Source of the DNA: Escherichia coli
GTDB lineage: Bacteria > Pseudomonadota > Gammaproteobacteria > Enterobacterales > Enterobacteriaceae
Direction: 5' to 3' (one strand)
NCBI RefSeq assembly: GCF_050320075.1
Contig: NZ_CP190018.1
Length of the DNA: 64,000 nt
Of this stretch, positions 8,832-39,841 are shown in pieces. A program made the position numbers and the translations under genes. The notes beneath the pieces are model-generated. The model saw only the letters and a list, made by a program, of their open reading frames with translations. It ran no database searches and was not told where the DNA came from. Each line of letters starts with the position of its first letter. The stretch's first letter is position 1.

Positions 8832-8876
8832 CGAGTATTTACTAACGCGGTCATTGCCGCCTGATGGGGAGCGTTG

Positions 8877-10478: not shown

Positions 10479-10496
10479 AGTGATTGAGAAGGCGCT

Positions 10497-14818: not shown

Positions 14819-16889
14819 TCTGGCCGCGATGCTGCGCCTGCCTGCAAACCTGAAATCGACACAATGGCAGATCCTTGCCGGACCGATTTTGATCCTGTTG
14901 ATTTTGTCGATGATGGTGCTGCCACTGCCCGCATTCATACTCGACCTGTTGTTTACCTTCAATATTGCCTTGTCGATCATGGTGTTGCTGGTGGCGATGT
15001 TTACCCAGCGCACGCTTGAGTTTGCTGCGTTTCCGACCATTCTATTGTTTACTACGTTGTTGCGTCTGGCACTTAACGTAGCTTCAACCCGCATCATTTT
15101 GATGGAAGGGCATACCGGCGCGGCGGCGGCTGGGAAGGTGGTCGAAGCGTTCGGTCACTTCCTCGTTGGTGGCAATTTCGCTATCGGTATCGTGGTGTTC
15201 GTCATTCTCGTGATCATCAACTTTATGGTCATTACCAAAGGTGCCGGGCGTATCGCAGAAGTGGGGGCGCGCTTTGTTCTCGATGGTATGCCGGGTAAGC
15301 AGATGGCGATTGACGCCGACCTTAACGCCGGATTGATTGGTGAAGATGAGGCGAAAAAACGCCGCTCCGAAGTGACTCAGGAAGCCGATTTTTACGGCTC
15401 AATGGACGGGGCAAGTAAGTTTGTTCGCGGCGATGCCATCGCCGGGATCCTCATCATGGTCATTAACGTTGTCGGCGGGTTGCTGGTCGGCGTGCTGCAA
15501 CATGGCATGAGCATGGGACACGCCGCGGAAAGTTATACGCTATTGACCATTGGCGACGGTCTGGTGGCACAAATCCCGGCGCTGGTGATTTCTACCGCCG
15601 CGGGGGTCATCGTTACGCGTGTCAGCACCGATCAGGATGTTGGCGAGCAGATGGTGAATCAGCTTTTCAGTAACCCGAGCGTTATGTTGTTAAGCGCCGC
15701 CGTGCTCGGTTTACTCGGCCTGGTGCCCGGAATGCCGAACCTGGTATTTTTGCTGTTCACTGCCGGATTGCTTGGGCTGGCCTGGTGGATCCGCGGACGT
15801 GAACAAAAAGCGCCTGCCGAACCAAAACCGGTAAAAATGGCAGAGAATAATACCGTTGTCGAAGCGACGTGGAACGATGTACAACTGGAAGATTCCTTGG
15901 GAATGGAAGTGGGTTATCGACTGATCCCGATGGTTGATTTCCAACAAGATGGCGAGTTGCTGGGCCGTATTCGTAGTATTCGTAAGAAATTTGCTCAGGA
16001 GATGGGGTTTCTGCCGCCGGTGGTGCACATTCGCGACAATATGGATCTGCAACCTGCACGTTATCGCATTTTGATGAAAGGCGTAGAGATTGGCACTGGC
16101 GATGCCTATCCGGGGCGCTGGCTGGCAATTAACCCAGGTACCGCTGCCGGGACGTTACCTGGTGAGGCGACCGTCGATCCGGCATTTGGCCTGAATGCTA
16201 TCTGGATTGAAAGTGCGCTTAAAGAACAGGCGCAGATTCAGGGGTACACCGTGGTTGAGGCCAGCACGGTGGTGGCAACGCATCTTAACCACCTCATTAG
16301 CCAGCATGCCGCAGAGCTGTTTGGTCGTCAGGAGGCGCAACAGCTGTTGGATCGCGTCGCCCAGGAGATGCCAAAGCTGACGGAAGATCTCGTTCCTGGC
16401 GTCGTCACGCTCACCACACTGCATAAAGTGCTGCAAAATCTGCTCGATGAAAAAGTGCCGATTCGCGATATGCGCACTATTCTCGAAACGCTGGCGGAAC
16501 ATGCGCCCATCCAAAGCGATCCACATGAATTAACCGCCGTCGTGCGCGTGGCGTTGGGACGGGCGATTACCCAGCAGTGGTTTCCTGGCAAAGATGAAGT
16601 TCATGTTATTGGCCTCGATACACCGCTGGAACGTTTGTTGCTACAGGCGTTGCAGGGCGGGGGCGGACTGGAGCCAGGGCTGGCGGATCGTTTACTGGCG
16701 CAAACTCAGGAAGCTCTATCCCGTCAGGAGATGTTGGGTGCGCCGCCAGTTTTATTGGTGAACCACGCGCTGCGACCATTATTGTCTCGCTTCCTGCGCC
16801 GCAGCTTGCCGCAGTTAGTGGTGCTGTCGAATCTGGAACTATCTGATAACCGACATATCCGCATGACGGCGACAATTGGCGGTAAATGA
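14811..16889 (+). CDS. flhA: Flagellar export apparatus protein FlhA
   Basis: 692 aa from MSNLAAMLRLPANLK...; overlaps flhB stop; ORF-track start at 14736 is an upstream extension. Confidence 0.95.
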   Translation: MSNLAAMLRLPANLKSTQWQILAGPILILLILSMMVLPLPAFILDLLFTFNIALSIMVLLVAMFTQRTLEFAAFPTILLFTTLLRLALNVASTRIILMEGHTGAAAAGKVVEAFGHFLVGGNFAIGIVVFVILVIINFMVITKGAGRIAEVGARFVLDGMPGKQMAIDADLNAGLIGEDEAKKRRSEVTQEADFYGSMDGASKFVRGDAIAGILIMVINVVGGLLVGVLQHGMSMGHAAESYTLLTIGDGLVAQIPALVISTAAGVIVTRVSTDQDVGEQMVNQLFSNPSVMLLSAAVLGLLGLVPGMPNLVFLLFTAGLLGLAWWIRGREQKAPAEPKPVKMAENNTVVEATWNDVQLEDSLGMEVGYRLIPMVDFQQDGELLGRIRSIRKKFAQEMGFLPPVVHIRDNMDLQPARYRILMKGVEIGTGDAYPGRWLAINPGTAAGTLPGEATVDPAFGLNAIWIESALKEQAQIQGYTVVEASTVVATHLNHLISQHAAELFGRQEAQQLLDRVAQEMPKLTEDLVPGVVTLTTLHKVLQNLLDEKVPIRDMRTILETLAEHAPIQSDPHELTAVVRVALGRAITQQWFPGKDEVHVIGLDTPLERLLLQALQGGGGLEPGLADRLLAQTQEALSRQEMLGAPPVLLVNHALRPLLSRFLRRSLPQLVVLSNLELSDNRHIRMTATIGGK

Positions 16890-19853: not shown

Positions 19854-20609
<756 letters not shown>

Positions 20610-20655
20610 TTTTTACCGTTGCATCATGTCGCCCAATATGATGCTTGCTCGTACC

Positions 20656-20688
20656 AGGCCCCTGCAATTTCAACAGGGGCCTTTTTTT
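20656..20688 (+). terminator. Rho-independent terminator after cutC
   Basis: Stem AGGCCCCTG/CAGGGGCCT followed by T7. Confidence 0.8.
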
Positions 20689-20994
20689 ATCCCTGAATAG
20701 TATAAAAAATGAACGATTACCGCGATCTGTTGAGCGGGTGACAGTGCACATAGCGTTGTGCTAAAAATTTTTATATATTCATATTAATTATGTAATTTAA
20801 ATTACTAAAACTGACAAATATGTATTCTAAATAACAACTGGGTTATTCCTTAGCAATTAATGATTACATTGTAATAAATCATATTCTTTATCGATTATTT
20901 CAGGCAGTGTTGTGCCGAATTATGCAAGCGGTCAATTCGTTGTATATTTAATTATACAATGATTTCGGTGTTCTGGAATTAATTAGAGGAATCT

Positions 20995-22095
20995 ATGCGA
21001 GGGAAAAAACGCATTGGGTTAATGTTTTTGCTGATAGCGGTTGTGGTTGGTGGCGGCGGGTTATTGCTGGCGCAAAAAGCCTTACATAAAACGTCGGATA
21101 CAGCATTTTGCCTTTCCTGCCACTCGATGAGTAAACCTTTTGAGGAATATCAGGGAACTGTCCACTTTTCGAACCAGAAAGGGATACGTGCGGAATGTGC
21201 CGATTGCCATATTCCAAAGTCAGGGATGGATTATTTATTTGCTAAATTAAAAGCATCTAAAGATATTTATCATGAATTTGTTAGCGGCAAAATAGACAGT
21301 GACGATAAGTTCGAAGCGCATCGTCAGGAAATGGCCGAAACAGTATGGAAAGAATTAAAAGCCACTGACTCTGCAACGTGCCGTAGTTGCCATTCTTTTG
21401 ATGCCATGGATATTGCCTCGCAAAGTGAATCTGCGCAGAAAATGCATAACAAAGCACAAAAGGGCGGCGAAACCTGTATCGATTGTCATAAAGGCATTGC
21501 TCATTTTCCGCCAGAAATAAAAATGGATGACAACGCGGCGCATGAGCTGGAAAGTCAGGCCGCTACTTCAGTGACTAATGGCGTACATATTTATCCTTTC
21601 AAAACTTCTCGCATAGGCGAGCTGGCTACCGTGAATCCTGGTACCGATCTCATCGTCGTTGATGCCAGTGGCAAACAGCCGATCGTTCTGTTGCAGGGTT
21701 ATCAAATGCAGGGCAGTGAAAACACGCTCTACCTGGCGGCAGGTCAACGGCTGGCACTAGCCACATTAAGTGAAGAAGGTATCAAGGCGCTCACGGTAAA
21801 CGGGGAATGGCAGGCTGACGAATACGGCAATCAATGGCGTCAGGCGTCTTTACAGGGTGCGCTTACCGATCCCGCATTAGCGGACCGTAAACCGCTATGG
21901 CAATACGCTGAAAAACTTGACGATACCTATTGCGCTGGTTGCCATGCCCCTATTGCCTCCGACCATTACACCGTCAATGCATGGCCGTCCATTGCCAAAG
22001 GAATGGGGGCGCGAACCAGCATGAGCGAAAACGAACTGGACATTTTGACGCGGTACTTCCAGTACAACGCCAAAGATATTACCGAGAAACAGTGA
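20995..22095 (+). CDS. torY: Pentahaem c-type cytochrome TorY (TMAO/N-oxide reductase system III)
   Basis: 366 aa with five CxxCH haem-binding motifs (CLSCH, CADCH, CRSCH, CIDCH, CAGCH); NapC/NirT-like. Confidence 0.93.
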
Positions 22096-26783: not shown

Positions 26784-27130
26784 TCAGAAAAGAGAAGATT
26801 GCTGTGGAATAGCCGGAACTGCTCCGATCTCTGGAAGCGTTTTACGTAAGTCTTCCCACAGGGTATGTACCAGTTCCGGGGCCTGGGCAATATCTGGCGT
26901 ATGTAAAAAAAGATAAGGCGTAGTGGTCTGATGCCACTGCGCTAATTTTTGTAACCAGACCTGAAATAATTCCCGGTTTTGCGTCATATCATCACTACCG
27001 ATAAAACGGATCAGCGGATTTGTCGCCGTCAGTACAGCATGTACCGGAACTTTAGGTTTTTTTCGTTGAGCGTCGCGAATAGCTTCACTGTGTGGACGTG
27101 CTGCATGAACCGGGCGGCTGTCTAAAATCA
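26784..27130 (-). pseudogene. yecE: yecE 3' fragment (C-terminal ~114 codons), separated from its 5' half by a 12.2 kb insertion
   Basis: Translation ...ILDSRPVHAARPHSEAIRDAQRKK...QQSSLF continues in frame from the 5' fragment at 39369 once the insert is removed; the ORF-track start at 27134 is a TTG artefact. Confidence 0.85.
27124..27130. repeat. attL core (AAAATCA) of the yecE insertion
   Basis: Identical 7-mer at 39363-39369; left flank joined to right flank restores yecE codons ...NRVILDSR... Confidence 0.65.
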
Positions 27131-27189
27131 TCAAGGTCTAAATGCACTACATGGGCACCTAAACATATACATGTGATGTTGAGGTGTTA

Positions 27190-27210
27190 GAAAGGGGGCT
27201 GTTCAGCCCC
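27190..27210 (-). terminator. Rho-independent terminator for the 306-aa leftward gene
   Basis: On minus strand GGGGCTGAACAGCCCC hairpin followed by CTTTCT, immediately after the stop at 27219. Confidence 0.7.
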
Positions 27211-27218
27211 TGATAGAC

Positions 27219-28139
27219 TTAGTAATTATCCCTGACAACTTCATCATATCTTTCAATGAAGGTTAGTTGTTTATTACTTCCATTATAACTATCAACCCAT
27301 TTGTCTACAGCTTCATCGAATAGAAATAAAAAATCCGTATAATTTATATACACTACATTATCATAATATTGGGTTGGGTGACCTCTTTTACATACAGCAA
27401 TACTAAGACGTCTTTCTTTACCCTGAGTAACTTTGTGTGAATTAAGATTAGTCATGTGAAGCAATGAGTTCCTTAATTCATATAATTCGTCGGAAGTTAC
27501 TCCAAGTTTTTGTATATCTGAGTATGTATCTAACCAATTTTGAAAGACTCTTCTTTTGTTTCCAAACTCAATATAAGCTATAGTATCAATAAATGACATT
27601 AATAGCTTGAAGCTTGACAAGTAATGTTTTTTGTTAAACAGAAGCTTTATTGGTTCCATATGGTCATCATTAAGAAGTTCCTTAATGTGAAAACCATCAT
27701 CTTTCATATACTTATCAAGATAGTCTGGCAAGTCTTTTACACCTTCAATGTGATAGTTAGGTGTGTGCTTATTCCTTAATTGCTCTGACATTGATAACTG
27801 AATATCATATTGTAATTTGCCTTTAACAACGGGGGTGACTATAGCTAAAGGGTTTTCAGGTGCATTTTGAGCTTCTAATGCTAATTCAAACGGAGCAAAA
27901 GGATTACCAATCCGCAAATTTGCATTATATCTTTCAAGTGTCAATTTGTCATTTTCTAAAACAGAAGGGTGTATCCCATAAAATAAACGACAAGAAGCTA
28001 AGTCAATCTCCAAATTCCGCTTTAAAAAATCTAATTTTTGCGCATCATCGCCATCATGTTCGTGAGGTACTATTCCGGCATGTGTGATATGAACTCCATC
28101 AGGACTAAAGCAAAATATGTTGTAGATAATCTCTTTCAT
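27219..28139 (-). CDS. Hypothetical 306-aa protein, AT-rich, counter-oriented accessory gene in the element; has one R-x4-H (RNSLLH) motif
   Basis: Uninterrupted ORF with ATG start, own terminator, transcribed opposite to the rest of the element; no family recognised by eye. Confidence 0.6.
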   Translation of the reverse strand: MKEIIYNIFCFSPDGVHITHAGIVPHEHDGDDAQKLDFLKRNLEIDLASCRLFYGIHPSVLENDKLTLERYNANLRIGNPFAPFELALEAQNAPENPLAIVTPVVKGKLQYDIQLSMSEQLRNKHTPNYHIEGVKDLPDYLDKYMKDDGFHIKELLNDDHMEPIKLLFNKKHYLSSFKLLMSFIDTIAYIEFGNKRRVFQNWLDTYSDIQKLGVTSDELYELRNSLLHMTNLNSHKVTQGKERRLSIAVCKRGHPTQYYDNVVYINYTDFLFLFDEAVDKWVDSYNGSNKQLTFIERYDEVVRDNY

Positions 28140-28400
28140 ACCATTCTAACCTTCAGTGAAAATAAAGTTTTAACTATCATTAGATTATGAACAATCACAA
28201 TTGGCCTGTAAATAACAGGGCATAAACAGGTTCGTTTAGCTTGATTTTATCACTATAACTGTCTGATTTAACGGTAACTCACCAAGTATACACACAGTAA
28301 TTACACAATCCTGTTATTATGTAACTTATTGAAATATATAAATAATTTTTACATTCTTTGTTTGGGGTAAGCTGTGTAATGTTAGTCGTCCCTCTCCAGA

Positions 28401-28414
28401 CACTATATATAGTG
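28401..28414. promoter_or_regulatory. Perfect 14-bp palindrome CACTATATATAGTG in the 1.1 kb ORF-free spacer
   Basis: Read directly; embedded in a run of TATATA-containing repeats. Confidence 0.4.
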
Positions 28415-29102
28415 CTATATACAGGACTATATAACGATATATAGATGTTTGGTCACATGGTATAACTATCAAACCACTTAACGATTTCCTACGTGAAAGT
28501 TAGAAAGTGATAGTTATAGTTACCTTGTCAAATCTTCGTAGTCCCTTCTTAAAAAATCGTGAAAGGTAATCTTGTTATCTATACAGAATCTACGTAGATG
28601 CTTCTTAGTGCGCAAAACAGCTATTATGTTAAAAACGCACTGTATACGTATCAGTACTGATTTATAAGGGTTTTGTGTATTGGCTGATAAGAGGCTATAC
28701 AGCACCTTGAGAGCATGTCTTCTAAGTCATTGACATATAAGGTCACAGAAGTTTGTAGCTGTTACAGAGAAAACTGGATAGGACTTCACAGAACTATAAA
28801 ATGTTACAGCTATTGATAGGTGAAATCTTCTTGATAGATGCTTTGAAGTGTGGTGAAGGCTTTTTGAGGTGGGGCTAAACAGATATCATGAAGAAAGTCA
28901 ATAGTTGATTCGGTTTATCGAATAAACCTCATAGATATTTTAAAATTCTGCAAAGGGGGTCACATAGCTGGTGTGACGGGTACTTAGCAGCTACAGACAT
29001 CTATCAGATATTTTTGAAGATTTTTAGAAGGGGAATTTGAAGAGGGGCTACTACGATTTTATAAAAATTTTCAGATTCTGAAAAGTTACTGTACAGAATA
29101 TG

Positions 29103-29127
29103 TACAGATATCTTTAAAGTATCTGTA
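29103..29127. promoter_or_regulatory. Inverted repeat TACAGATA-N9-TATCTGTA (candidate operator) upstream of the MTase gene
   Basis: Read directly; adjacent direct repeats GTACAGA(A/T)AT and GATATCC x2. Confidence 0.4.
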
Positions 29128-29249
29128 AAAACTTTTAAGATAAAAGATAGATATCCCAGAAAGGATATCCGTTTAGAAAACCTATTAAGTATCTCTTAAA
29201 AGAGAGTAAACCTTGTCAAGAGTGATTGCAATAAAAATTTTTATTTCTT

Positions 29250-29912
29250 ATGTCAATTGAGTGTATTTTAATCGGGAAACATCATGGGGGTTCTGATTAC
29301 TGGAGAACTCCATTTTTGTTATTTAAGAACTTACACCGTGAATTTATTTTCAGTCTGGATGGTGCTGCAACTAAGCACGATACGTTATTACCCCGCTTTA
29401 CGGATGATATTCACAATCAGTCATGGGATGGTGAACGGGTATTCTGTAACCCACCATACAGCGACACTAAAACATTCCTCGTAAAAGCGTCTGAGGCAGA
29501 TTTATCGGTATTCCTGATACCGTACCGACCCCAAACCATATACTGGCTTAAGCACATCTTCACAAACCCGCTTTGCCATGAAATCCGTATTCTTCATCGT
29601 GCAGTTAAATACCTTCCACCAGCAGGGCATAACAGGCTTACTATTAGGTCGCCGTTTCCAAGTGCAGTCGTTGTTTTTAAAAAAGAACCACGCAGGCATG
29701 AAATTACGCAGATGGTTTGCTGTGCTGATACATTGCTACCGTTAACCATCATTAACAGAGGAGGCTTGAGAGGAAGGCCCACCATTTACCCACCTGAGAC
29801 GCTCGACAGCTTCATAAAACTATACAGGCAAGGCAAACCCATTAAGTGCATTGCAGATGCTCTCAGAATGCCTCTGAGCACGTCATACAGGATTGCTCAA
29901 AGGTTGAGCTAG
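29250..29912 (+). CDS. Phage-type DNA N6-adenine methyltransferase (Dam family) with C-terminal HTH-like tail
   Basis: SDYWRTPF...FSLDGAA...FCNPPY motifs typical of phage Dam MTases; C-terminal GRP...IADALRMPLSTSYRIAQRL resembles an HTH. Confidence 0.75.
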   Translation: MSIECILIGKHHGGSDYWRTPFLLFKNLHREFIFSLDGAATKHDTLLPRFTDDIHNQSWDGERVFCNPPYSDTKTFLVKASEADLSVFLIPYRPQTIYWLKHIFTNPLCHEIRILHRAVKYLPPAGHNRLTIRSPFPSAVVVFKKEPRRHEITQMVCCADTLLPLTIINRGGLRGRPTIYPPETLDSFIKLYRQGKPIKCIADALRMPLSTSYRIAQRLS

Positions 29913-30052
29913 AATTCTCATAAATATGGTCATTTACAAGACAGGTGATTTAGATATTAAGAGGTATCCCTGTGAACAATAAATGACCAATCAGTAATTA
30001 TCCTGTGAAATAATTGTTGCAATTTATAATCACACATGGTATAGTTTCATAG

Positions 30053-30197
30053 TGGACTGATAAAAAAGTTCATGTCTTGAAGTGGTAACACTTGGGGAGG
30101 TGTCAGATGATTGACGTATATTAACCTCTCATTCATGGTAATACCTCAGCGTTTTAATCATCGTACTGTTTCAGGCATGGACTTCTTTATCAGTCCA
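30053..30197. promoter_or_regulatory. 145-bp segment bracketed by a perfect 12-bp inverted repeat (TGGACTGATAAA / TTTATCAGTCCA) upstream of the initiator gene
   Basis: Read directly at 30053-30064 and 30186-30197. Confidence 0.4.
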
Positions 30198-30276
30198 TCA
30201 ATCCCCCAGATATTTTAATCACACAGGCTAATCGGTTTTATCCGGTTGGCCTTTTCACGTATGAGGTAATTTATGA

Positions 30277-31245
30277 ATGAAAAAAGAAACTAATGCTTTT
30301 ATTATGGTAGATAAACGAGTTGCACAATTCCCTAAAACATTAAAGCCAATTGACCGCTTGGTATATTTCACTATGCTGGATGGTGCTGATTATTACGAAT
30401 CTAAGTTCGGGAGATACGCACCAAGTATTGACTATTTGATGGTTATGTCTGGTGCTACACGTAATACAGTTATTGATTCACTTAAGAGACTTGAGTCACA
30501 CAGACTTATCGAAAAGACCAATGTAAAGGGTCAGCAAAGTATTTTTAAAGTATTCACGTTGGATGAGCGTCCAGAGGTCTTATCAGAACCTACCCTTGAT
30601 GAGCGTCGTAGAGCTAAATTATCAGGTCAACCAGAATCTGACAGTAACCCAACCAAAAATTGGTTACCTACCCAACCAGAATTTGGTTACCTACCTAACC
30701 AGAATTTGGTTACATGTAATACTGAATATAAAGACAAAAATATAAATACTGAAGAAGAAAGACTAAAAGGGAACTTTGAAGAAGAATCTCTTAAGAAGGG
30801 AGCTTCGCTCTGTGATTCACATGAATGTGATATTAAAGAAGATGACTTTCTTTCTTTGGATGAATTAAATGATTTTCTCTCTATGAATGAATCTGGCCTT
30901 GATAGTGAAGCTACTAAAGAGGCTGTTAAAAAGGAAGATAAAATCTCTGATGTGAATATCGATAGTGACCATAAAAACACACAGTGCCCCGCCACTGATG
31001 ATGAGATGGACCCCTTCGATGATTACCTTGATGAAGAGTCAGAGCGTGAAAAAGCCATTAAGAGGGTAGAGAAGAAAAAGAGATTCGAGCTTGCAAGACA
31101 AAAGAACAAAGTATCGGGTTTAGACCCATTCGATGACAGTGACGATGATGACTTTTCTTTCACACCAAGAAAGAAACAAACTCAGGATGACAAGAAGCAA
31201 AAAATTAAACCGAAGATGTATTTTGCTGGTGGAGGTATGCGCTAA
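30277..31245 (+). CDS. Putative replication initiator / replisome organiser (N-terminal winged-helix-like domain, acidic C-terminal tail)
   Basis: N-terminus resembles phage initiator DNA-binding domains; tandem iterons inside the ORF; highly acidic low-complexity C-terminal half. Confidence 0.55.
   Translation: MKKETNAFIMVDKRVAQFPKTLKPIDRLVYFTMLDGADYYESKFGRYAPSIDYLMVMSGATRNTVIDSLKRLESHRLIEKTNVKGQQSIFKVFTLDERPEVLSEPTLDERRRAKLSGQPESDSNPTKNWLPTQPEFGYLPNQNLVTCNTEYKDKNINTEEERLKGNFEEESLKKGASLCDSHECDIKEDDFLSLDELNDFLSMNESGLDSEATKEAVKKEDKISDVNIDSDHKNTQCPATDDEMDPFDDYLDEESEREKAIKRVEKKKRFELARQKNKVSGLDPFDDSDDDDFSFTPRKKQTQDDKKQKIKPKMYFAGGGMR
30641..30714. repeat. Tandem 23-bp direct repeats (iterons) inside the initiator ORF: TTGGTTACCTACC(C/T)AACCAGAAT
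   Basis: Two full units at 30660-30682 and 30683-30705 (1 mismatch) plus flanking partial units. Confidence 0.8.
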
Positions 31246-31541
31246 TGAAAGAATATCACGGTGAAAAGAGATACAAAGATTACCTGTTAAAGCGTTATAG
31301 CATTTCTCGTGAAGGCCACTTAATGAAGGATACTCACGGGGAAGTTTACCGGATTAGACCGAAGAAAGAAGGGAGGGATTATTTCTTTTACGATGGTGTG
31401 ACAGATTTAAAGATTGATGCTTTGAAGTTTGCGGCGCTGTATCATTATGATATCTGGGACTCAGTCCACCAGCTACGATTAAAAGACGGTGACCCCGGTA
31501 ATCTGAGGGCCACCAATATTATCAAGGGAAAGTGCCGGTAA
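31245..31541 (+). CDS. Small HNH_3/NUMOD4-like protein (98 aa), catalytic His not evident
   Basis: YSISREGHLMKDTHGEVYRIRPKKEGRDYFFYDG...LKDGDPGNLRATN resembles NUMOD4/HNH_3 layout; overlaps initiator stop. Confidence 0.45.
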   Translation: MKEYHGEKRYKDYLLKRYSISREGHLMKDTHGEVYRIRPKKEGRDYFFYDGVTDLKIDALKFAALYHYDIWDSVHQLRLKDGDPGNLRATNIIKGKCR

Positions 31542-31864
31542 GTCCACCAGCTATTTATTTATTGAAATCTCTATCTCAACACGAAGAAGTTTAAGTCGAA
31601 TTGTAAGCTTTGTCTTTTTTGTAATGACTCGATTCATAACGCAAAACACCAATAGCACAATAAATACCGCAAAGCCCAACGAGCTAAAACGATGAGATTC
31701 AATAATTGCTGTGAAAAAATCATGCATTAATTTTCCTTTTGCGAAAGGAAACAGCACCTGTATCAGCCCCTATAACCATAATATCATGTAAATGAGATGT
31801 TGACAATATGTTAAATAAATGTTATGATTGTAGTATGAGTAAGAGATTTAAGGAGATTTTTACA

Positions 31865-32155
31865 ATGACTCACACAGTTACGCGCCTTTTGCCAGAGGCA
31901 TTTGAACGACTGGCAGCAATCAAAGCCAAATATCCCGATATGAAGCACACAGCGCTTGTTGGAGAGCTTTTAAAAGAGTCGGTAACCCTGACCCCTTTCG
32001 ATAACGTTAAGGGCGTTGCAGAGGGTTCTAAGGCCATCAGAATCACAACGGACCAACTGGAACTACTCAAAGCACAGTCCGCAGTAGCAGGTTGCTCAAT
32101 GATTCAGGTGTTAAGCGCAAAGGTCCATCAATTAGCGGATAGGCTGGGGGTTTAA
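31865..32155 (+). CDS. Hypothetical small protein (96 aa)
   Basis: AAGGAG RBS 8 nt upstream of ATG at 31865; ORF-track start at 31808 is probably an extension; stop overlaps next gene (TAATG). Confidence 0.5.
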   Translation: MTHTVTRLLPEAFERLAAIKAKYPDMKHTALVGELLKESVTLTPFDNVKGVAEGSKAIRITTDQLELLKAQSAVAGCSMIQVLSAKVHQLADRLGV

Positions 32156-32580
32156 TGCTATGCACATTTGATTATCATGCGTTTTATCGCCATAGAGGCC
32201 ACCTTGTCCGTGAGAATAGCGGAACATGGAAAGATTTAACTCGTAATGCTGAACCCTTCACACACCAGCAATTAAAATCCCGCTTCTCCAGATGGAAGAA
32301 TGCACCAGCAGATACTGGTGATTTTGAGATTATCCATACCTTCGATTATGCCTCAGAAGATGACCTTCACGATGCAATTAAGCTGATTGAAGACTTCAAT
32401 ACCTCAGAAGATGTGGATGGTGACAAATATAAATCCCGTGGTAACCGCTATAACCGTGATGATATCACTCAGGCCATAAATGCTGGTCAATCTCAGCGAT
32501 ACATTACAGAAAAATATGGTATTTCACGGAGACAGTATTTCTACGTTAAATCATTGATTAATAAAGACAATTCAAAATAA
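32155..32580 (+). CDS. Hypothetical protein (141 aa) with C-terminal HTH-like segment
   Basis: Translationally coupled to upstream gene; C-terminus ...QSQRYITEKYGISRRQYFYVK resembles a Hin/resolvase-type HTH. Confidence 0.5.
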   Translation: MLCTFDYHAFYRHRGHLVRENSGTWKDLTRNAEPFTHQQLKSRFSRWKNAPADTGDFEIIHTFDYASEDDLHDAIKLIEDFNTSEDVDGDKYKSRGNRYNRDDITQAINAGQSQRYITEKYGISRRQYFYVKSLINKDNSK

Positions 32581-32741
32581 CCATCTCAGTAACGGTAGAA
32601 TGCACTTTACAGGCAGAGTTGCACCTTAATTTGATAAATTACCTTACCAGCCAGTGCAACTCCCTCTGTAACCCGCATGATTACTGGTCTCAGAATGGCT
32701 ATTTTAAGAGGTCTGAGATGTGTTTTGTAGGAGATTTAAAA

Positions 32742-33065
32742 ATGAACAACTTCCCATTACAGATTTTCGTTGATAACGACACCGCTATGATGGTGCAAAG
32801 CTTCAGTGATGCAGGTATTAGCATTGATTTTGACAGGCTGTTAAAGCTAATGGCTGATAATGAAGAAAACGTCTCTGACTTTATTCACTCGGTGGAGTTT
32901 AACGAGCCTCGAATGATGTTACCAATTACAGACAGTAATATGAAAAGATTGGTTATTGAGCAAACGAACAAATACAGTATTTCCCCAGAGCAATTTTTGA
33001 AAGGTGCTGTGACAATCCTGTACAGCGATAATATTTTGGTTACGGATTCCGTGAGGGTTCACTAA
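32742..33065 (+). CDS. Hypothetical small protein (107 aa)
   Basis: GGAG-type RBS before ATG at 32742; ORF-track start at 32619 is probably an extension. Confidence 0.45.
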   Translation: MNNFPLQIFVDNDTAMMVQSFSDAGISIDFDRLLKLMADNEENVSDFIHSVEFNEPRMMLPITDSNMKRLVIEQTNKYSISPEQFLKGAVTILYSDNILVTDSVRVH

Positions 33066-33359
33066 TGGGCTTAATAATTGCTTGGACGTTGCTTGGCTTA
33101 TTTGTTGGTTGCTGGGTAGGCAGCACAGTAAATAGAAATTGATGTTACCAATCTGTTAAAAAGCTGTTGACAAATAACCTTAAGCATGAGATGATGGTAA
33201 TAGGGGAGAGCAACTCTCTCTTATTTTTCTTTCAAAATAATCCGATGGATGGATATTCTGAATTGGAAAGGTGCAATGCTTTTCGTCATGGCCTTTCAGT
33301 TTAGTCTGAGAGGCTATCTCAAAAAGTGCTTAATCATTCATTGAACCCTTTACAGCTTT

Positions 33360-33387
33360 GCCCTAACTCATGATTAGGGCTTTCTTT
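33360..33387 (+). terminator. Rho-independent terminator-like hairpin
   Basis: Stem GCCCTAA/TTAGGGC with 7-nt loop followed by TTTCTTT. Confidence 0.55.
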
Positions 33388-33456
33388 AAGAGTTTTTAAA
33401 CAGAGCTTTTAAAGAAAGTTTTTCCTGAAACTTCGTTAACGTTAAAGCAAACCTTC

Positions 33457-33520
33457 AAAGCCCTTCACAGATGAGGATGATTCCATGAATATCCGAATCA
33501 CCTATGTTTAGGGCTTTTTT
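33457..33520 (+). ncRNA. Long-loop hairpin with U-tract (candidate small RNA 3' end or attenuator)
   Basis: Outer stem AAAGCCCT/AGGGCTTT enclosing inner GGAT/ATCC stem, followed by T6. Confidence 0.3.
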
Positions 33521-33636
33521 CAGCTTTTAAAAAGCATACTTGGCAAACGCCTTTTAAGCCTCTTCTAAGTTCGAGGATGTCAGGTGTGCTTTTTAAAAAC
33601 TGAAACATAAATTATCTTAGAAGAGGAAAGGTATTA

Positions 33637-34341
33637 ATGGCTATCCGTGATGAAAATGAAATGATTATTGAAAACAAACCAAGTGCACTTGATATTCACG
33701 AATTAAGTTTGCGTGAATCTTTTGATAGAGCTTGGCGGGAATCACACGAAGTAAATAAAGGTCCATATATTCCACCAGAACCACTCGAGATTCCAAGAGT
33801 TGAAATTGATTTTTCTATGAACGAACGGTGTGAACTTGATTTGAAGTTGAAGCTACAACGCCGATATTTCCAAGCTATTAAAGACTCTCAAGAAGCAATG
33901 AGAAGTGTTTATGAGAAAATTCAGTCCAAGCTTGAAGACGAAATTGACGAAATGGCTATTTTGATGGAGCTTCAAACCAATCCTTATGCTTATTTCTCTC
34001 GACTAGACCGTGACGGTTGGGGGTATGACCCTGTAGAGATTGGTAAAGTGATTGCAGATTTACCAGAAGGTCAAAGGGTTATTCGTACGGAAAGGGCCAT
34101 CAGAGCGCCACATCAACTGTCTCTAATTGTTGCTGATAAATCACAAGCTGAGCTTGAAGAAATTGCCAAAGAGAAACTGATGAAAGCAAGAGAAAATGAG
34201 ATTAATTTGCTGAAATCAAGACTGGCTAAGCTGATTAGTGACCATCAAGCGCTGGCTAAGGAGTACCGTCAAGAGTTGGCACAGATTATCAGCTTCAATG
34301 ATTTTCTGAGTGTTCCACGAGAATTTAGCAAGGCTGTTTGA
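33637..34341 (+). CDS. Hypothetical protein (234 aa), charged coiled-coil-rich
   Basis: ORF with ATG and GAGG-type RBS; no family recognised. Confidence 0.55.
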   Translation: MAIRDENEMIIENKPSALDIHELSLRESFDRAWRESHEVNKGPYIPPEPLEIPRVEIDFSMNERCELDLKLKLQRRYFQAIKDSQEAMRSVYEKIQSKLEDEIDEMAILMELQTNPYAYFSRLDRDGWGYDPVEIGKVIADLPEGQRVIRTERAIRAPHQLSLIVADKSQAELEEIAKEKLMKARENEINLLKSRLAKLISDHQALAKEYRQELAQIISFNDFLSVPREFSKAV

Positions 34342-34364
34342 TTATGAATTAAAAGAGGTGATTA

Positions 34365-34583
34365 ATGTATGAAGACCGTTTGGAAACTATCAAGGCAGTT
34401 TGTGAAAAACTTAAAAACCAACCACGTAAACCAAAAACGGTAAAGAGTAAGCATCAGCCTGTCACCTCAAACAGCAAAATAAAGATTCGCAAAATTCCTT
34501 CGTGGTGCATTGACCGTATTCCGGTTGGTTCAAGAATTATTCGTGAAGATGGTGATTATCATTGGGTATCAGTTGTTGGTTAG
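34365..34583 (+). CDS. Hypothetical small basic protein (72 aa)
   Basis: RBS GAGGTG before ATG; gene-dense context. Confidence 0.45.
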   Translation: MYEDRLETIKAVCEKLKNQPRKPKTVKSKHQPVTSNSKIKIRKIPSWCIDRIPVGSRIIREDGDYHWVSVVG

Positions 34584-34671
34584 TTAGTAAAAATCTACGG
34601 GAGAGATTATCGAGTGATATCGGTAGCTCTCCCTTTTTCGTATATGAACACTTAAGAGGTGAAAAATATGA

Positions 34672-36804
34672 ATGAGCAAATTCACAGTTGATAGTTTTAT
34701 CGTTGAATTAAGCTTCAATGAAAACATTATTAAGGGCTTGCAAAGAGTTGAAAAGGCAGCTTTGCAGTCAGCACAAAGAATTGAAAAGAACCTAAATAAA
34801 GGTTTCAGGATTAATACAAAGCAGCTTGATAGTAATTTAACGGCTTCTTTAGGGCAGCTTGAAAGGAAGTTTAATAAGGCCTTTGACAAGATTGAACAGA
34901 GAGCAAGAAATACTAAAGCTTTCCAGTTTACCACCAGATTTAATGACACTGTTAATCCTCCAAAACAACCGAGACAGCCACGAATTAGCGGCAACAGAGC
35001 AATCACAGCAGCTTACTCAGCGAATATGAGCAAGCTAAAAGGCTTTGACCCTATTTTGCAGAAATACATCAAATCTCAGTTTTACGGGCTATCTGCTAAA
35101 GCCGGTTCAATGGATTCTTCAAAATTCAATGAGAAGTTAGCTCAGTTAAACGCTTCAGTCAGAGAAGCAATTGCTAAAGCCAGAGGTCATACATCCACCA
35201 GCATTAATGGTGACAGAGCAGCTAATAGTCTTGATAACCTGTCTTCAGCAGCAGTTAAAACAGCAGGTGCATTTATCTCAATGCAGGCTGTATTAGCCAG
35301 TTATCAGAAGATTATGGAAATTGGTTTACAGCGTGCAAGTGCTGAACGTTCAATTGATTTCGTATTTGATAAAGATGCAGGTCAAGTAAAAGAGTTCACA
35401 AAGTCATTAGCTCAAACAACGGGTTTAGATATCGCTGAACTGCAATCACAGTTTGCTGGTTTTGGTGCTTCAGCTAAAGAGTCTATGGGCATTCAAGGTT
35501 CTGAAGAACTTTTTAAAAATATGATTGGCTATGCTCGTCTGATGGGGAGAAGTGAAGAAGAGATTAAGCGAGCACTGACAGCATTATCACAGATGGCTGG
35601 TAAGGGTCAGGTTATGGCTGAAGAGCTTAAGGGGCAATTAGCTGAAGCTGTTCCTGGTATGGTTCAGGTATTCGCTAAAGCAACCGGAAGGAATGAACAA
35701 GAGCTATTTGATGCCATGAAGAAGGGGGCTTTAAAATCTGCCGATACTCTTCAGAAGGTCACTCAGGAACTGAATAAACAAATCACCGCTAAAGGTGGCT
35801 GGAAAGCTATTTCAGAAAGTACACAGGCACAACTAGGGAACCTGAAAAACTCTTGGAATACCACGCTTGATAGTATCTTCAGAGGTTCTGAAGATGGTCT
35901 GCAAGATTTTACAAGAAGCTTAACAACGCTTTTAAACGCTCTTGGTGGAAGTGGTAAAAGTCTTGGTGAATCTCTTGGTAGTCTCATGACTTCTATGTCA
36001 CATGGTGTCGATTCATTGACTGATATCAGCTACAGGGTAAGAGCATTCTTCGATGAGGTGACATTAGCTTACCGTTCACTAAATGACACTCAGAAAAAAA
36101 TTGTTGATGGTTTATCTGATGGGTTAATTGATGGTTTGAAGATGCTTGCCGTAGCTGTTACTGCTCAAAAGGCTGCAAATGTAGCTGGAGGCTTGTTAAA
36201 CCTTGCAAATGCTGTTACTTCATTCGGTGATGCTGTTAATAAAGCTAAAGCTGGCAAGGCTGGTTCTTCAGGTGGTGCGCTAAATAAAGTTGGTAGAGTT
36301 GTTCTTTATGCTGAGTTGGTGAACTTTGCTCTTGATAATTTAAACCCTGAAGCGGCTAAGAATCCGAACTTACACCAATCAGGTATTGGAACAGAGACAA
36401 ACTTCAACCCTGAATACAAAGGCGATTCATCTAAACCAAACCAAATTAATGATGGATGGGCTAAGATTGGTAGTTCTATCGCTGACTGGTTTAATGGTGC
36501 GGCTAATAAAATTGCTAACTTCCAAGACCCGATGAATAACTTTGTTAATAACACACAATCAACTCCACCAGCTATCACAGGTGACATGGTTAATAGCAAT
36601 GCTCAACTTGCTATGGCTGTATCAGAGTTAGGAAGAAAGGTAGACGCTTTAACAGTAGAAGCTAAGAAGCCTTTATCAGTTAATATCAAAGGTGAAGCAA
36701 TTGTTAGACCGGATGAACCAGCTTTCTTTACTTTCAATCAATCAGCTAATGACCAGTTCACGCAGGATATGCTCTTAAGTTCAAGCTATCCAGAGGAAGA
36801 ATGA
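34672..36804 (+). CDS. Tape-measure-domain-like protein (710 aa)
   Basis: Central segment ...MAEELKGQLAEAVPGMVQVFAKATGRNEQELFDAMKKGALKSADTLQKV... resembles the conserved phage tape-measure domain; Ala/Gly/Ser-rich low-complexity C-terminal part. Confidence 0.55.
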   Translation: MSKFTVDSFIVELSFNENIIKGLQRVEKAALQSAQRIEKNLNKGFRINTKQLDSNLTASLGQLERKFNKAFDKIEQRARNTKAFQFTTRFNDTVNPPKQPRQPRISGNRAITAAYSANMSKLKGFDPILQKYIKSQFYGLSAKAGSMDSSKFNEKLAQLNASVREAIAKARGHTSTSINGDRAANSLDNLSSAAVKTAGAFISMQAVLASYQKIMEIGLQRASAERSIDFVFDKDAGQVKEFTKSLAQTTGLDIAELQSQFAGFGASAKESMGIQGSEELFKNMIGYARLMGRSEEEIKRALTALSQMAGKGQVMAEELKGQLAEAVPGMVQVFAKATGRNEQELFDAMKKGALKSADTLQKVTQELNKQITAKGGWKAISESTQAQLGNLKNSWNTTLDSIFRGSEDGLQDFTRSLTTLLNALGGSGKSLGESLGSLMTSMSHGVDSLTDISYRVRAFFDEVTLAYRSLNDTQKKIVDGLSDGLIDGLKMLAVAVTAQKAANVAGGLLNLANAVTSFGDAVNKAKAGKAGSSGGALNKVGRVVLYAELVNFALDNLNPEAAKNPNLHQSGIGTETNFNPEYKGDSSKPNQINDGWAKIGSSIADWFNGAANKIANFQDPMNNFVNNTQSTPPAITGDMVNSNAQLAMAVSELGRKVDALTVEAKKPLSVNIKGEAIVRPDEPAFFTFNQSANDQFTQDMLLSSSYPEEE

Positions 36805-36967
36805 TTTCTTATATATCCGTGTGCTACGTGATTTCTTCTGAACAGATATACCCACTAAAAATTATTTTTTACGTAGCTCACGCTTAACAGAGAAAATACT
36901 TATATATCAAAGGCTTGGTTAAAAATGATTAAAATACACTAAGCCTTTGAAATCAAAGGAGAATTTA

Positions 36968-37741
36968 ATGATTTACTCTAATCAGATTCGTTACAGTGGT
37001 AAAGATGGCGTTTACTTTCATCTACAAGGCCAGCCAGATAATTTCTTGTCACTATCAGCTACTGAGAACATGGAATTTGACAGCCCTATGATGGTTACCA
37101 CTCAAAATATGCAATCAGGGCAGACTGTCACAGATAATGTAATGCGTTCACCCAGAACTATTTCAATCAGTGGTGTGGTTGTAGTTGGTGAATCCGGTAG
37201 TATCCTTATCTCAAGAGATAATAAGCTGGTGGAAAACTTCATAGACACTCTTGAAAACTGGCGTGACCAGAAGCAAATTATCTCAGTTGTCTGTAAAGAT
37301 GGTATTAAGATTGACGACTCAATTATTACAAACTTTAAAGCCTCTAAAGATGTTGGTATTGCCAATGGTCTTAGAATCCAATTAACTTTTCAGGAAATTA
37401 ACTTTAAAGCTATTGTGGGTCAGACTGATATCTCGGCTGCGACCGGAAGGACTTCTACCACAAGTGATGGTGGTGCTACCAGTAAAAAGAATACAGGGAA
37501 CACTACGACAAGCTTAGGTAACGGTATGTTGATGTGTCAGGAGCTATATAATCGCTCTACGAGTGAACTTACTAATGAGCAACTTCAAGCCCGTATCAAT
37601 TGTGGTAAAAATGTCAGAGTTAAGAACGGAAAAAGCACCTTCTCAGATGCCGCTAATGAGCAAGCTTCAAAGGTGCTTAATAATGCTGGTACAGGTAGTA
37701 CTTTGAAGAAGTATTCTGTTAATCCTAACAAGCGATACTGA
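36968..37741 (+). CDS. Hypothetical protein (257 aa), possible virion/tail-associated
   Basis: AAGGAG RBS before ATG at 36968 (ORF-track start 36947 is TTG); directly follows the tape-measure-like gene. Confidence 0.45.
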
Positions 37742-37755
37742 CGATAGAATCTCAA

Positions 37756-39279
37756 CTATATGATAACCTCATCAACATCTATTAAACCCCTCTCAGTGAC
37801 TTCAGAAAGCGACTGTATAGCCTCTGTAACGTTGTCTGAGGGGTTTTCTGTTATTGGTAAGGTGATTGCTTTACCGTTGTGAAAAGTTACTTTACAGCGA
37901 CGTTTAGCAGTATTTAAAACGACCTCTTTAACAGCACTTTTGATTATCAGTTGTGCTTCAATCCTTCCCGCCTTTGTAGTCAAGTCACAATCAGACAAAC
38001 AACCCACATCAATAGATTTAAGGCGTTGTGTCTCCTTCTCGATATCCGCATCAACTTGTGATAGCTCATTCTTTAGTTGTCTTAGTTTGCTGGTAATAGC
38101 GGACAAGTCTTCAATTTCAAGTGATAGCTGTACCAGCTTTTCAATATTGCTTGAGATGTGTTCACGGTGTAGCTTCAGTGTGTCTATGGTATTCGTCATA
38201 TCGCTATCAAATCGGTCAAGACGAGATAGCAGGGCAAGCAATGTACCATCGGTTTGCTTACGTGAAAGTCCTTTAGCACTACAACGGTTTTCATTACGAA
38301 GAGGACAACGATAAATCCCGTTTCTTGTATCGCTAAAGCCTGTGATAATCAAAGCATGACCACATTCAGAACAACGGATAACACCTTTGAAAAGATTCAC
38401 AGCCATTGGCTTATCTGAAGCAGGTTTTCTACCGTAACGAGCATATGATAGTTGTTGAACTTTGTAGAATGTTGTTTCATCTATAATTGCAGGATAATAA
38501 CCAGATATCTCCTCACAGCCTTTAGGTGTGAAGTAACCAATTACAGAGCGATTCTTCAAAAGGTCTTGCACTGAGGTTTGACCAAACTTACCTGCTTTGT
38601 ACTGGTTAAGCGTCTGGTGACCTTCAGCATTAAGAGTTCTGACAATCTCCCAGATAGACTTACCCTCTAACCGTAGCTGAAAGCACCTCTTCACAGTCTC
38701 CACTTTCTCAGGTATCACAGAGAAGCTTTTACGGTCATCATTAAGCTTAAGCCATGCAGGACAACGCCTAGAAATCTTGATACCAGCTTTAGCAGCTTCT
38801 TTCTTTGCATCCCATGCAGCTTGTATACGCTCAGCCTTACGTAATGATTCCTCATGCGCCCTTTGCATTATCAAAATGCTTTTAATCAGAGCTAACGGGT
38901 CTTTAAGAGATTCCCTTGTGTAATGTTCACCATCGGACAGGGTGACTACATCTACACCAGAGCGAAGAATGTTTCTGAGTAGCTCACTTGCTTGGTCTAC
39001 GTCCTGACGTGAGAGACGGTCTAAACTCTCGATTAGTAGTGTATCACCAGCTTTAACAAGCCCTTTCTCGATAGCGGTTAAAAAGTCACCTAAGCCACCT
39101 TTCAAGTGCTTACCAGTGAACCCGCTAACGCCTAAATCACGAAAAGTAAGGGATTCATCCAGATAGTACTCAGGATGAGCCTTAAGCCAATCAGTGACCA
39201 TCTTAGCCTGTCGTCTTAATGAGTCGCCTCTGGATTGCTTCTCAGATGAAAACCGGATGTAACTGATTGCACGTTTCAT
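37756..39279 (-). CDS. Large serine recombinase (integrase)
   Basis: 507 aa; N-terminal resolvase-type catalytic domain (YIRFSSEKQ with catalytic Ser), recombinase domain, Cys-rich zinc ribbon (CSECGH...YRCPLRNENRC), C-terminal coiled coil; adjacent to attR. Confidence 0.9.
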   Translation of the reverse strand: MKRAISYIRFSSEKQSRGDSLRRQAKMVTDWLKAHPEYYLDESLTFRDLGVSGFTGKHLKGGLGDFLTAIEKGLVKAGDTLLIESLDRLSRQDVDQASELLRNILRSGVDVVTLSDGEHYTRESLKDPLALIKSILIMQRAHEESLRKAERIQAAWDAKKEAAKAGIKISRRCPAWLKLNDDRKSFSVIPEKVETVKRCFQLRLEGKSIWEIVRTLNAEGHQTLNQYKAGKFGQTSVQDLLKNRSVIGYFTPKGCEEISGYYPAIIDETTFYKVQQLSYARYGRKPASDKPMAVNLFKGVIRCSECGHALIITGFSDTRNGIYRCPLRNENRCSAKGLSRKQTDGTLLALLSRLDRFDSDMTNTIDTLKLHREHISSNIEKLVQLSLEIEDLSAITSKLRQLKNELSQVDADIEKETQRLKSIDVGCLSDCDLTTKAGRIEAQLIIKSAVKEVVLNTAKRRCKVTFHNGKAITLPITENPSDNVTEAIQSLSEVTERGLIDVDEVII

Positions 39280-39346
39280 TGTTCACCTCACCAATAGCAG
39301 TTGGGCTTGTACCAACCCCTAGATTGTATCGCTTTAGATGGTGTAT

Positions 39347-39841
39347 TTAAACGTGTCTAATAAAAATCACCCGATTAACGCCGCGCTGATGTAAACCGCG
39401 ATTAAGCGTTTGTTCCTCTTCCCCTTTGGCGAAAAACTGTGGATGGCGGACTTCCACACCATAATTAAATTCGCCGGGAAGGGAATCGAGAAAATGCCAA
39501 AGCGCAGGCAGATCCCGTGGGCCAAATGTGGCAGGCAGTTGCAGCCAGTATTGCCCAATGCGCGGCGCTAACGGTGACATGCGGGTCAAAAATTCAGTCA
39601 CTAAATCATCGCAATGCCGTAATGCTGCCTGATGCGAAATGGTCGCCGGAAACTTAAAACAGAAGCGAAAATTATCTGTGGTCTGCTCACGCCAGCGCAG
39701 GACAACCTCGGATTTCGGCAGGGCGTAAAGCGTGGTGTTGCCCTCCACACAGTTAAAGTGGCGGGCATACTCTTCAAGGCTGGTGATCCCCAACCGCACC
39801 CATTTAGGATGCGACCATTGCGGCAGACCGATGTAAATCAT
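39347..39841 (-). pseudogene. yecE: yecE 5' fragment (N-terminal ~158 native codons, reads 6 codons into the insert before a stop)
   Basis: Translation [29 protein letters not shown]... (DUF72); 158 + 114 codons reconstitute a 272-aa protein. Confidence 0.85.
39363..39369. repeat. attR core (AAAATCA) of the yecE insertion
   Basis: Identical 7-mer to 27124-27130. Confidence 0.65.

Follow-up and report, generated by a model that had tools for sequence, protein, structure and literature searches.

In a 64,000-nucleotide stretch of an Escherichia coli chromosome (assembly GCF_050320075.1, contig NZ_CP190018.1; hereafter the window), a 12,239-bp genomic island encodes a tape measure protein (TMP) followed by a tail tube initiator, both related to proteins of Felix O1-like myoviruses. 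We put at roughly 0.7 the probability that this island is a satellite of virulent Felixounavirus (Felix O1-like) myoviruses which would build chimeric tails around its own two core proteins, an assessment drawn from comparisons of sequences. It most likely represents a previously undescribed satellite family, and in the literature on Felix O1, Felixounavirus, Ounavirinae or yecE, the gene in which the island resides, we found no description of it. The initial annotation had raised the idea of a satellite with a tail-length protein of its own that borrows the rest of the virion, and this has become the best-supported reading through the definition of the island, the orthology of the two genes, purifying selection, noncoding mimicry of phage DNA and the existence of circular forms.

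By its profile and structural matches, the open reading frame (ORF) at 34672-36804 (plus strand, ATG start) encodes a true tape measure protein of 710 aa. It matches Pfam TMP_3 (PF20155; 1.1e-18, aa 234-400), TIGR02675 (3.1e-12; 46.6 bits against a cutoff of 21.35), PHROG 4036 (1e-79) and the chain of PDB entry 9NDY named "Tape measure protein gp017" (4e-65), and RefSeq likewise names it "tape measure protein". The tape-measure likeness originally noticed in this protein is thus borne out, and the homology holds on profile search. In BLASTP, the protein aligns end to end with the 742-aa gp074 of phage wV8 (3e-71, 27% identity), while in global alignments the TMPs of such islands and those of the phages are 32-35% identical.

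The tube initiator, a Dit-like protein of 257 aa, is encoded at 36968-37741 on the plus strand. This length corresponds to the RefSeq ATG start; the mechanical ORF opens at a TTG at 36947 and would give 264 aa. A 257-aa protein after the TMP gene had been correctly noted before, yet the accompanying statement that it belongs to no recognizable family does not stand, as the protein matches Pfam Dit_like (PF21821; 3.7e-19), PHROG 3721 (5e-128) and the "Tube initiator protein gp018" of PDB 9NDY (9NDY_A; 6e-114). RefSeq calls the gene "phage baseplate protein". Its product is 72.5% identical to ORF68 of Felix O1 and 70% identical to gp075 of wV8. In tblastn searches, homologues of the initiator were limited to Ounavirinae-type phages and their identity dropped along the phage taxonomy, from 70-73% in Felixounavirus through 68% in Suspvirus and 64-65% in Mooglevirus to 46-47% in Hafnia and Erwinia phages; Vibrio phages gave no tblastn match even at E≤10. 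The order and orientation of the two island genes equal those of ORF67-ORF68 in Felix O1 and gp074-gp075 in wV8, where the genes are adjacent. On the strength of these alignments, the island TMP and initiator are orthologues of adjacent genes of virulent Felixounaviruses. The products of both ORF67 and ORF68 have been detected in the Felix O1 virion proteome.

The likeness between island and phage is unevenly distributed. At the DNA level, similarity in the coding part is limited to three places: the start of the TMP gene (81% identity over the first 95 nt, including 11 nt upstream), its end (97% over the last 30 nt) and, in the initiator gene, the part for the tube-like domain (550 nt at 80%). 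At the protein level, TMP residues 1-29 are ∼73% identical to the phage protein, the central domain is 46-61% identical and the remainder 7-30%, while near identity is regained over the final 12 residues (D[IM]LLSSSYPEEE). In the initiator, the C-terminal baseplate-spanning extension of ∼80 aa is only 28-41% identical to its phage counterparts. The cryo-electron microscopy (cryo-EM) structure of phage Bas63 shows the C-terminal 25 residues of the TMP touching the hub and the puncturing apparatus, and an initiator hexamer sitting on the hub, where it mediates between the trimeric hub and the six-fold tube (PMC12609058; PDB 9NDY). Because the conserved parts of the island proteins correspond to contacts in this structure, both proteins thus appear to keep the surfaces needed for entering a phage baseplate. 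In addition, both genes are under purifying selection, with ratios of nonsynonymous to synonymous substitution (dN/dS) of 0.13-0.31 for the TMP and 0.11-0.27 for the initiator.

The same pattern could be read differently, namely that the island serves defense only, with TMP and initiator acting as dominant-negative decoys that cripple Felixounavirus tail assembly, no packaging of the island, and spread by other routes. We regard this as the main rival explanation, compatible with most of the data, and as unlikely. Decoys might be expected to look much like what we see, with conserved docking interfaces in otherwise strongly diverged proteins, and the TMPs of different islands, which are 40-79% identical to one another and 32-35% identical to phage when those of wV8 and Felix O1 share 98%, show what resembles an arms-race pattern. 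Defenses that target tail assembly are known, e.g., Rta in PLE11, and we found no packaging or capsid-remodeling genes in the island. Yet the island TMPs are full-length proteins of conserved length (688-722 aa, i.e., 20-54 aa shorter than the 742-aa phage TMP) under purifying selection, and the decoy model leaves a putative Rep/iteron module, excised circles and mimicry of a terminal-repeat boundary, all described below, unexplained. Interference, the alternative raised at the outset, and transfer may coexist here, as they do in the Vibrio cholerae satellites called PLE.

Whereas the phage genes abut, the island carries a 163-nt spacer between TMP and initiator genes (36805-36967, plus strand), with two conserved hairpins and an RNA fold z score of −4.9. 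The stem of the first hairpin (GTGTGCTACGTGA / TCACGTAGCACAC; loop ∼37 nt) is kept in all seven islands aligned, which included yecE, yciI/tonB and L014 types, and some of the changes are compensatory; the island L009 is without the spacer. The element could be a processing site, an attenuator, an operator or a small-RNA element.

The limits of the island (27131-39369, including one core copy) were set by composition, by the RefSeq annotation of yecE, which is split into two pseudogene halves around it, and by comparison with an empty site. GC content is ∼37-40% across ∼27-39 kb, as opposed to ∼52% in the flanks. Both 26900-27130 and 39363-39600 are 100% identical to an uninterrupted yecE (L008) and overlap there by 7 nt, giving a 7-bp core, AAAATCA, at the left (attL, 27124-27130) and right (attR, 39363-39369) junctions inside yecE. 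The uninterrupted gene is present in 5,139 of 5,426 complete E. coli genomes. The reconstructed attP of ∼46 bp ends in inverted repeats and so matches the expectation for a serine integrase site. At the right end lies a gene for a 507-aa large serine recombinase (37756-39279, minus strand), an integrase by its match to phrog_95 (1.9e-79), with further weak XisF/CcrA matches; its homologues in the family show Resolvase, Recombinase and Zn_ribbon_recom domains. The island has thus inserted site-specifically by means of its own large serine recombinase, with 7-bp att cores. The segment 34672-37741 is 100% identical in E. coli strain YZLc1-3, for which identity was confirmed across the entire island; strains Ec-U3 and JML285 also carry the TMP-initiator segment, at 99.9-100% identity. 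Elsewhere in the window, we noted lower GC content at 1-2000 (0.425) and 20001-22000 (0.462) against a background of ∼0.52. In some strains, yecE is the target of two unrelated elements in tandem: in L005 (14258-15981) and L006 (13378-15103), a lambdoid prophage with a tyrosine integrase sits in yecE directly beside the island. It is because of such neighbors that the island turns up inside "viral" contigs of IMG/VR.

Excised forms, circular or concatemeric, are found for members of the family. In the Logan contig L013 (11,280 bp), a whole yciI/tonB-type island is circularly permuted, with its right end joined to its left end via a 13-nt shared core. A metagenome search for the attP junction of the yecE type returned one contig, ERZ1090866 NODE-760 (L025; 11,473 bp), which consists of island sequence throughout, has the same att site as the window island and matches it at 82-92% identity along most of its length; the two contig ends meet inside the rep gene.

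These observations bear on the view that the TMP and initiator genes are what is left of a decayed prophage tail module, a reading invited by their RefSeq names and by the stop codons or insertion sequence (IS) elements found in some copies. It is hardly credible, and we rejected it: the att borders are precise, the integrase is intact, hundreds of genomes carry this compact layout at several sites, dN/dS stays well under 1, and excised circles exist. Furthermore, the annotation of wV8 lists no integrase and the donor group is called lytic in the literature. Nor do the flanks hold a degraded tail module, a possibility raised at the outset; they consist of core E. coli housekeeping genes (cmoB, cmoA, yecN, the split yecE, yecD and aspS). 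The initial impression that nothing else tail- or head-like is present was confirmed with PHROGs, NCBIfam and a tblastn search in which the remaining nine island proteins were concatenated and compared with 50,697 phage records; these scans revealed no additional gene for head, tail, packaging or lysis and no other remnant of phage structure. Apart from a Dam methylase match and weak replication-initiator matches, these scans of the other island proteins found nothing in phages.

Two stretches of a 1.1-kb noncoding region near the left end of the island also resemble phage DNA that is itself noncoding. The first, at 28934-29096 (plus strand) with the motifs M1 (GATATTTTAAAATTCTGCAAAGGGGGT) and M2 (ATTTTATAAAAATTTTCAGATTCTGAAAAGTTAC), is ∼71% identical to a single-copy noncoding locus of wV8 (14903-15059). 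It matches 254 phage records, 253 of which are named as Escherichia, Salmonella, Shigella or Citrobacter phages or as Felixounavirus, the other being a Staphylococcus record; among the 60 matches listed, all but one, which falls in a small ORF, lie in unannotated DNA or unannotated records. For two of the phages, the genome ends place this match precisely. Pr103Blw has a PhageTerm-defined direct terminal repeat (DTR) of 581 bp (1-581), CRP22 has an exact terminal repeat of 579 bp with the same left end, and in both the match starts ∼50 nt before the right end of the repeat and extends ∼105 nt beyond it. Where phage genomes have direct terminal repeats (T7-type packaging), terminase cuts concatemers at the repeat boundaries. 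Given this mode of cutting and a match that spans the boundary, the island element is probably a mimic of a packaging or cleavage signal for the phage terminase. M1 also occurs in islands at other att sites. The TTGTTA repeats of the phage terminal repeat have no counterpart in the island. We further observed that the left terminus of the Felixounavirus genome (L016, 1-12) opens with GCCCCCTT, and that M1, near the right DTR boundary, closes with an inverted AAGGGGG in both wV8 and the island (28950-28960). This G-run may belong to an element recognized by the terminase, but Pr103Blw has none at that position.

The second stretch is a hairpin-containing element (29128-29189, plus strand) that lies ahead of the rightward operon, 60-120 nt before its first gene. 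Over 58 nt it shares 86% identity with wV8 23920-23865 (reverse strand), which lies between the divergent genes gp045 and gp046. By gene order, this region appears to be the divergent gene 40/41 region of Felix O1, where the morphogenesis transcription unit starts. Owing to its place upstream of the rightward operon, we consider the island copy a candidate phage-responsive promoter or operator element.

These noncoding similarities point to Felixounavirus only, and they argue against a further alternative, that the island is a satellite or mobilizable island of some other helper, be it a temperate phage or a conjugative element, and carries TMP and initiator as anti-Felixounavirus cargo. Lambdoid prophages do use yecE too and adjoin the island in L005 and L006, and IMG/VR contigs hold the island next to prophages. 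Nevertheless, we hold such a helper to be improbable: TMP and initiator belong to the core and keep a fixed position in all members at all att sites, with cargo varying at the left end, and neither PHROGs nor NCBIfam detected a relaxase, oriT, AlpA, primase or terminase-redirecting gene. The conjugative variant was dropped because these searches gave no relaxase or oriT.

If the island is indeed a Felixounavirus satellite, its cycle might run as follows. It would remain silent in yecE until a Felixounavirus infects, whereupon the infection would switch on the rightward operon, as suggested by the element shared with the phage promoter region. The island would then excise and circularize, as seen for family members, and presumably replicate from its own Rep/iteron origin. 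Its TMP and tube initiator would form the inner core that nucleates a myovirus tail, with the initiator hexamer on the baseplate hub and the TMP C terminus docked on hub and spike. Since the docking interfaces (TMP residues 1-29, the last 12 TMP residues and the tube-like domain of the initiator) are kept, these proteins could enter phage-encoded baseplates and give rise to chimeric tails, which should be slightly shorter than those of the phage because the TMP has 710 rather than 742 aa. All remaining virion parts would be taken from the phage, whose terminase is predicted to recognize and cut island DNA for packaging via the mimic of the DTR boundary. By diverting baseplates and capsids, the island would lower phage yield and would therefore act as a narrow anti-Felixounavirus defense.

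Several observations weigh against this model. No tail assembly chaperone (TAC), capsid-size remodeling protein or small terminase was detected in the island with PHROGs or by fold, and with neither a capsid-remodeling nor a terminase gene, the packaging of a 12-kb genome in an 86-88-kb capsid is left unexplained. The homology to the DTR boundary amounts to only ∼71% over 160 nt, and this element could instead have a promoter, terminator or origin role. What the circular contigs speak for is excision or circularization, with no sign of encapsidation; the attP pattern was not found in IMG/VR viral contigs, where the loci found with the 234-aa core protein described below are all integrated copies beside prophages and not virion DNA. 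Lastly, some copies are decaying, as in L006 with internal stops in the genes for the 234-aa protein and the TMP, or through IS insertions elsewhere. We also considered whether seven island copies (∼85.7 kb) might fill one phage head and discarded the idea, which is arithmetic only; the 11.25- to 11.5-kb members give no integer multiple.

From left to right, the island encodes a 306-aa protein on the minus strand, the 1.1-kb noncoding region, a Dam-type methylase, a Rep-like protein with iterons, several small ORFs, proteins of ∼105, 234 and 72 aa, the TMP, the tube initiator and, on the minus strand, the 507-aa recombinase. The 306-aa protein (27219-28139) has no assigned function and occupies a variable slot. 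It had no match in Pfam, NCBIfam or PADLOC and one marginal match in PHROGs (phrog_12390, unknown function, E 0.0068). In other islands (L006, L009, L011, L027, L028), this slot holds a small serine recombinase/resolvase of 182-191 aa, a 277-aa protein or a 221-aa protein, resembling the defense hotspots of P4 and PICI satellites. The N6-adenine DNA methyltransferase of Dam type (29250-29912, plus strand) was recognized by phrog_111 (2.4e-25), by a PADLOC orphan methyltransferase model (1.3e-13), by TIGR01712 below its cutoff and by its RefSeq name. A replication-initiator-like protein of 322 aa (30277-31245, plus strand) matches PHROG replication-initiation families at 1.7e-7 to 2.9e-6 and, weakly, HTH_36. 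Its gene contains three tandem 23-nt iterons (ACCCAACCAAAAATTGGTTACCT; 30647-30715, plus strand), found by repeat search at a spacing of 23 nt and 83-100% identical, which make up a candidate origin. By eye, the C-terminal tails of the methylase and of a 141-aa protein (32155-32580) look like resolvase-type helix-turn-helix segments. The methylase homologue of L009 has weak Dam and HTH_7 Pfam matches, and the 141-aa protein has only a nonsignificant one to HTH_28 (E 0.24). As judged from these tails, the methylase and the 141-aa protein may represent two small DNA-binding regulators.

Three further proteins on the plus strand precede the TMP. The ∼105-aa core protein (32742-33065) is present in every family member inspected and has no PHROG match. 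The 234-aa core protein (33637-34341), a coiled coil with a small beta domain, is specific to the family and found in only 12 clusters among 1.84 billion representative proteins. We looked up four diverged full-length homologues (21-43% identity), and each proved to be part of an island with the gene order seen here; in three of them the gene is two or three genes upstream of TMP and Dit_like genes, and the fourth contig (L010) ends just downstream of it. An AlphaFold2 (AF2) model of the 234-aa protein (pLDDT 78) had no significant Foldseek match in PDB or BFVD, and a Sid/TcaP-like scaffold role would be pure speculation. The conserved 72-aa protein (34365-34583), encoded directly upstream of the TMP gene, keeps a C-terminal motif, RKIP.WCIDR, across the family. 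As a candidate tail assembly chaperone, the 72-aa and 234-aa ORFs were rejected, being unlike wV8 gp072/gp073 and having no TAC profile or fold match. PADLOC assigned neither the TMP and tube initiator nor the core proteins to a defense system, and Rfam returned no match in the island.

Related DNA is present in ∼500 of the 5,426 complete E. coli genomes (∼9%), always on the chromosome. The members inspected share a common order: a variable left end, methylase and/or Rep, small ORFs, proteins of ∼105, ∼235 and ∼70 aa, the TMP (688-722 aa), the tube initiator (253-261 aa) and the large serine recombinase, with L010 being a short contig that ends before the TMP. At least three att sites are used (yecE, mdtG/lpxL and yciI/tonB), and the matching recombinases are 35-63% identical. 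Modules have been shuffled, since a 35%-identical recombinase occurs with a 79%-identical TMP and a 93%-identical recombinase with a 48%-identical one. Close TMP homologues are found in E. coli, Shigella and one Salmonella, and a scan of one genome per species with a tube-initiator alignment detected E. albertii only, so that the host range appears narrow. In some members, IS3, IS2 or IS100 interrupts the recombinase or TMP gene (e.g., L026, 12082-14941), and L006 has stops at 7709-10789. In view of these inactivated copies, decay and maintenance therefore coexist in the population.

The arrangement had initially been thought unusual, but a precedent exists in V. cholerae. PLEs, which are satellites of the virulent myovirus ICP1 and carry a large serine recombinase, build chimeric tails with a TAC, TMP and baseplate hub encoded by themselves (PMC11838301 / PMC12987554). 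Their TAC and TMP, and often the baseplate hub, are 19-41% identical to the ICP1 proteins, PLE particles contain the PLE TMP and have tails ∼10 nm shorter, and deletion of the PLE tmp gene cuts transduction by 96-99.9% (PMC11838301 / PMC12987554). Predicted tmp genes were noted only in Vibrio PLE-like elements and in some cf-PICIs (PMC11838301 / PMC12987554). Like a PLE, the island is small and chromosomal, encodes a large serine recombinase and a putative replication initiator of its own, has a strictly virulent myovirus as presumed helper, and carries next to its TMP a baseplate-core protein; in both cases the satellite TMP is shorter than that of the helper and distant from it (19-41% for PLE, 32-35% for the island). 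Unlike in PLE, the host is Escherichia and the helper lineage Ounavirinae, the size is 11-12 kb rather than ∼18 kb, the second protein is a Dit-like initiator 70-73% identical to that of the helper, and no TAC was detected, whereas TAC is conserved in all PLEs. With PLE compared by description, no TcaP-like, NixI-like or other PLE-type gene was recognized in the island. PLE particles and transduction have been studied, whereas the island is known here as a sequence alone. The failure of the tube initiator to match any Vibrio phage suggests an origin independent of PLE. The island thus looks PLE-like in every feature examined, yet we would not class it as a PLE, because no TAC was detected, the second tail protein is a Dit-like initiator with no Vibrio-phage homologue and no PLE-type accessory genes were recognized.

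As compared with the Felixounavirus tail core itself (Bas63 gp17/gp18; PDB 9NDY, PMC12609058), the island is alike in gene order, orientation, TMP ends and the tube-like domain of the initiator. It differs in having no TAC, tube, sheath, hub, spike or wedge genes, in its shorter TMP (by 20-54 aa, at 32-35% identity), in the initiator extension (28-41%) and in the structured 163-nt spacer. With PICMI, PICI, cf-PICI and P4-like elements, it shares the nature of a small, integrated and presumably helper-dependent island. The PICMIs of Vibrio are described as exploiting virulent phages, having no capsid-remodeling genes and packaging concatemers. Unlike PICI, cf-PICI and P4-like elements, the island shows no tyrosine integrase/AlpA/primase module, capsid, portal, terminase or psu/delta/sid in PHROGs and NCBIfam. 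What it does have in common with satellites is its own integrase with att sites, an excised form (in family members) and no complete virion module. On balance, we lean towards viewing the family as a widespread, sequence-unrelated E. coli counterpart of PLE, made up of 11- to 12-kb satellites in E. coli (∼9%), Shigella, E. albertii and, rarely, Salmonella, which would live off strictly virulent Felix O1-like phages, excise, replicate, become cut and packaged via the DTR mimic and nucleate chimeric tails with a TMP and initiator of their own that diversify fast.

Strictly virulent phages have known satellites in Vibrio (PLE, PICMI), and we found none described for E. coli; PLE was the first satellite for which the assembly of chimeric tails was demonstrated, in 2025-2026. 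Helpers for this family are at hand in Bas63 (BASEL collection), wV8 and Felix O1, cryo-EM of the helper tail core exists, and with hundreds of natural TMP variants, the question of why satellites replace the TMP would become directly testable. For phage therapy and for Salmonella/E. coli phage typing, in which Felix O1-like phages are widely used, ∼9% of E. coli may carry a dedicated parasite or defense. Our results also suggest that the annotations "tape measure protein" and "phage baseplate protein" in otherwise phage-free islands may flag unrecognized satellites. If the satellite reading is true, satellites of virulent myoviruses would have converged on substitution of the tail core as a general strategy, here accessible in a genetically tractable host.

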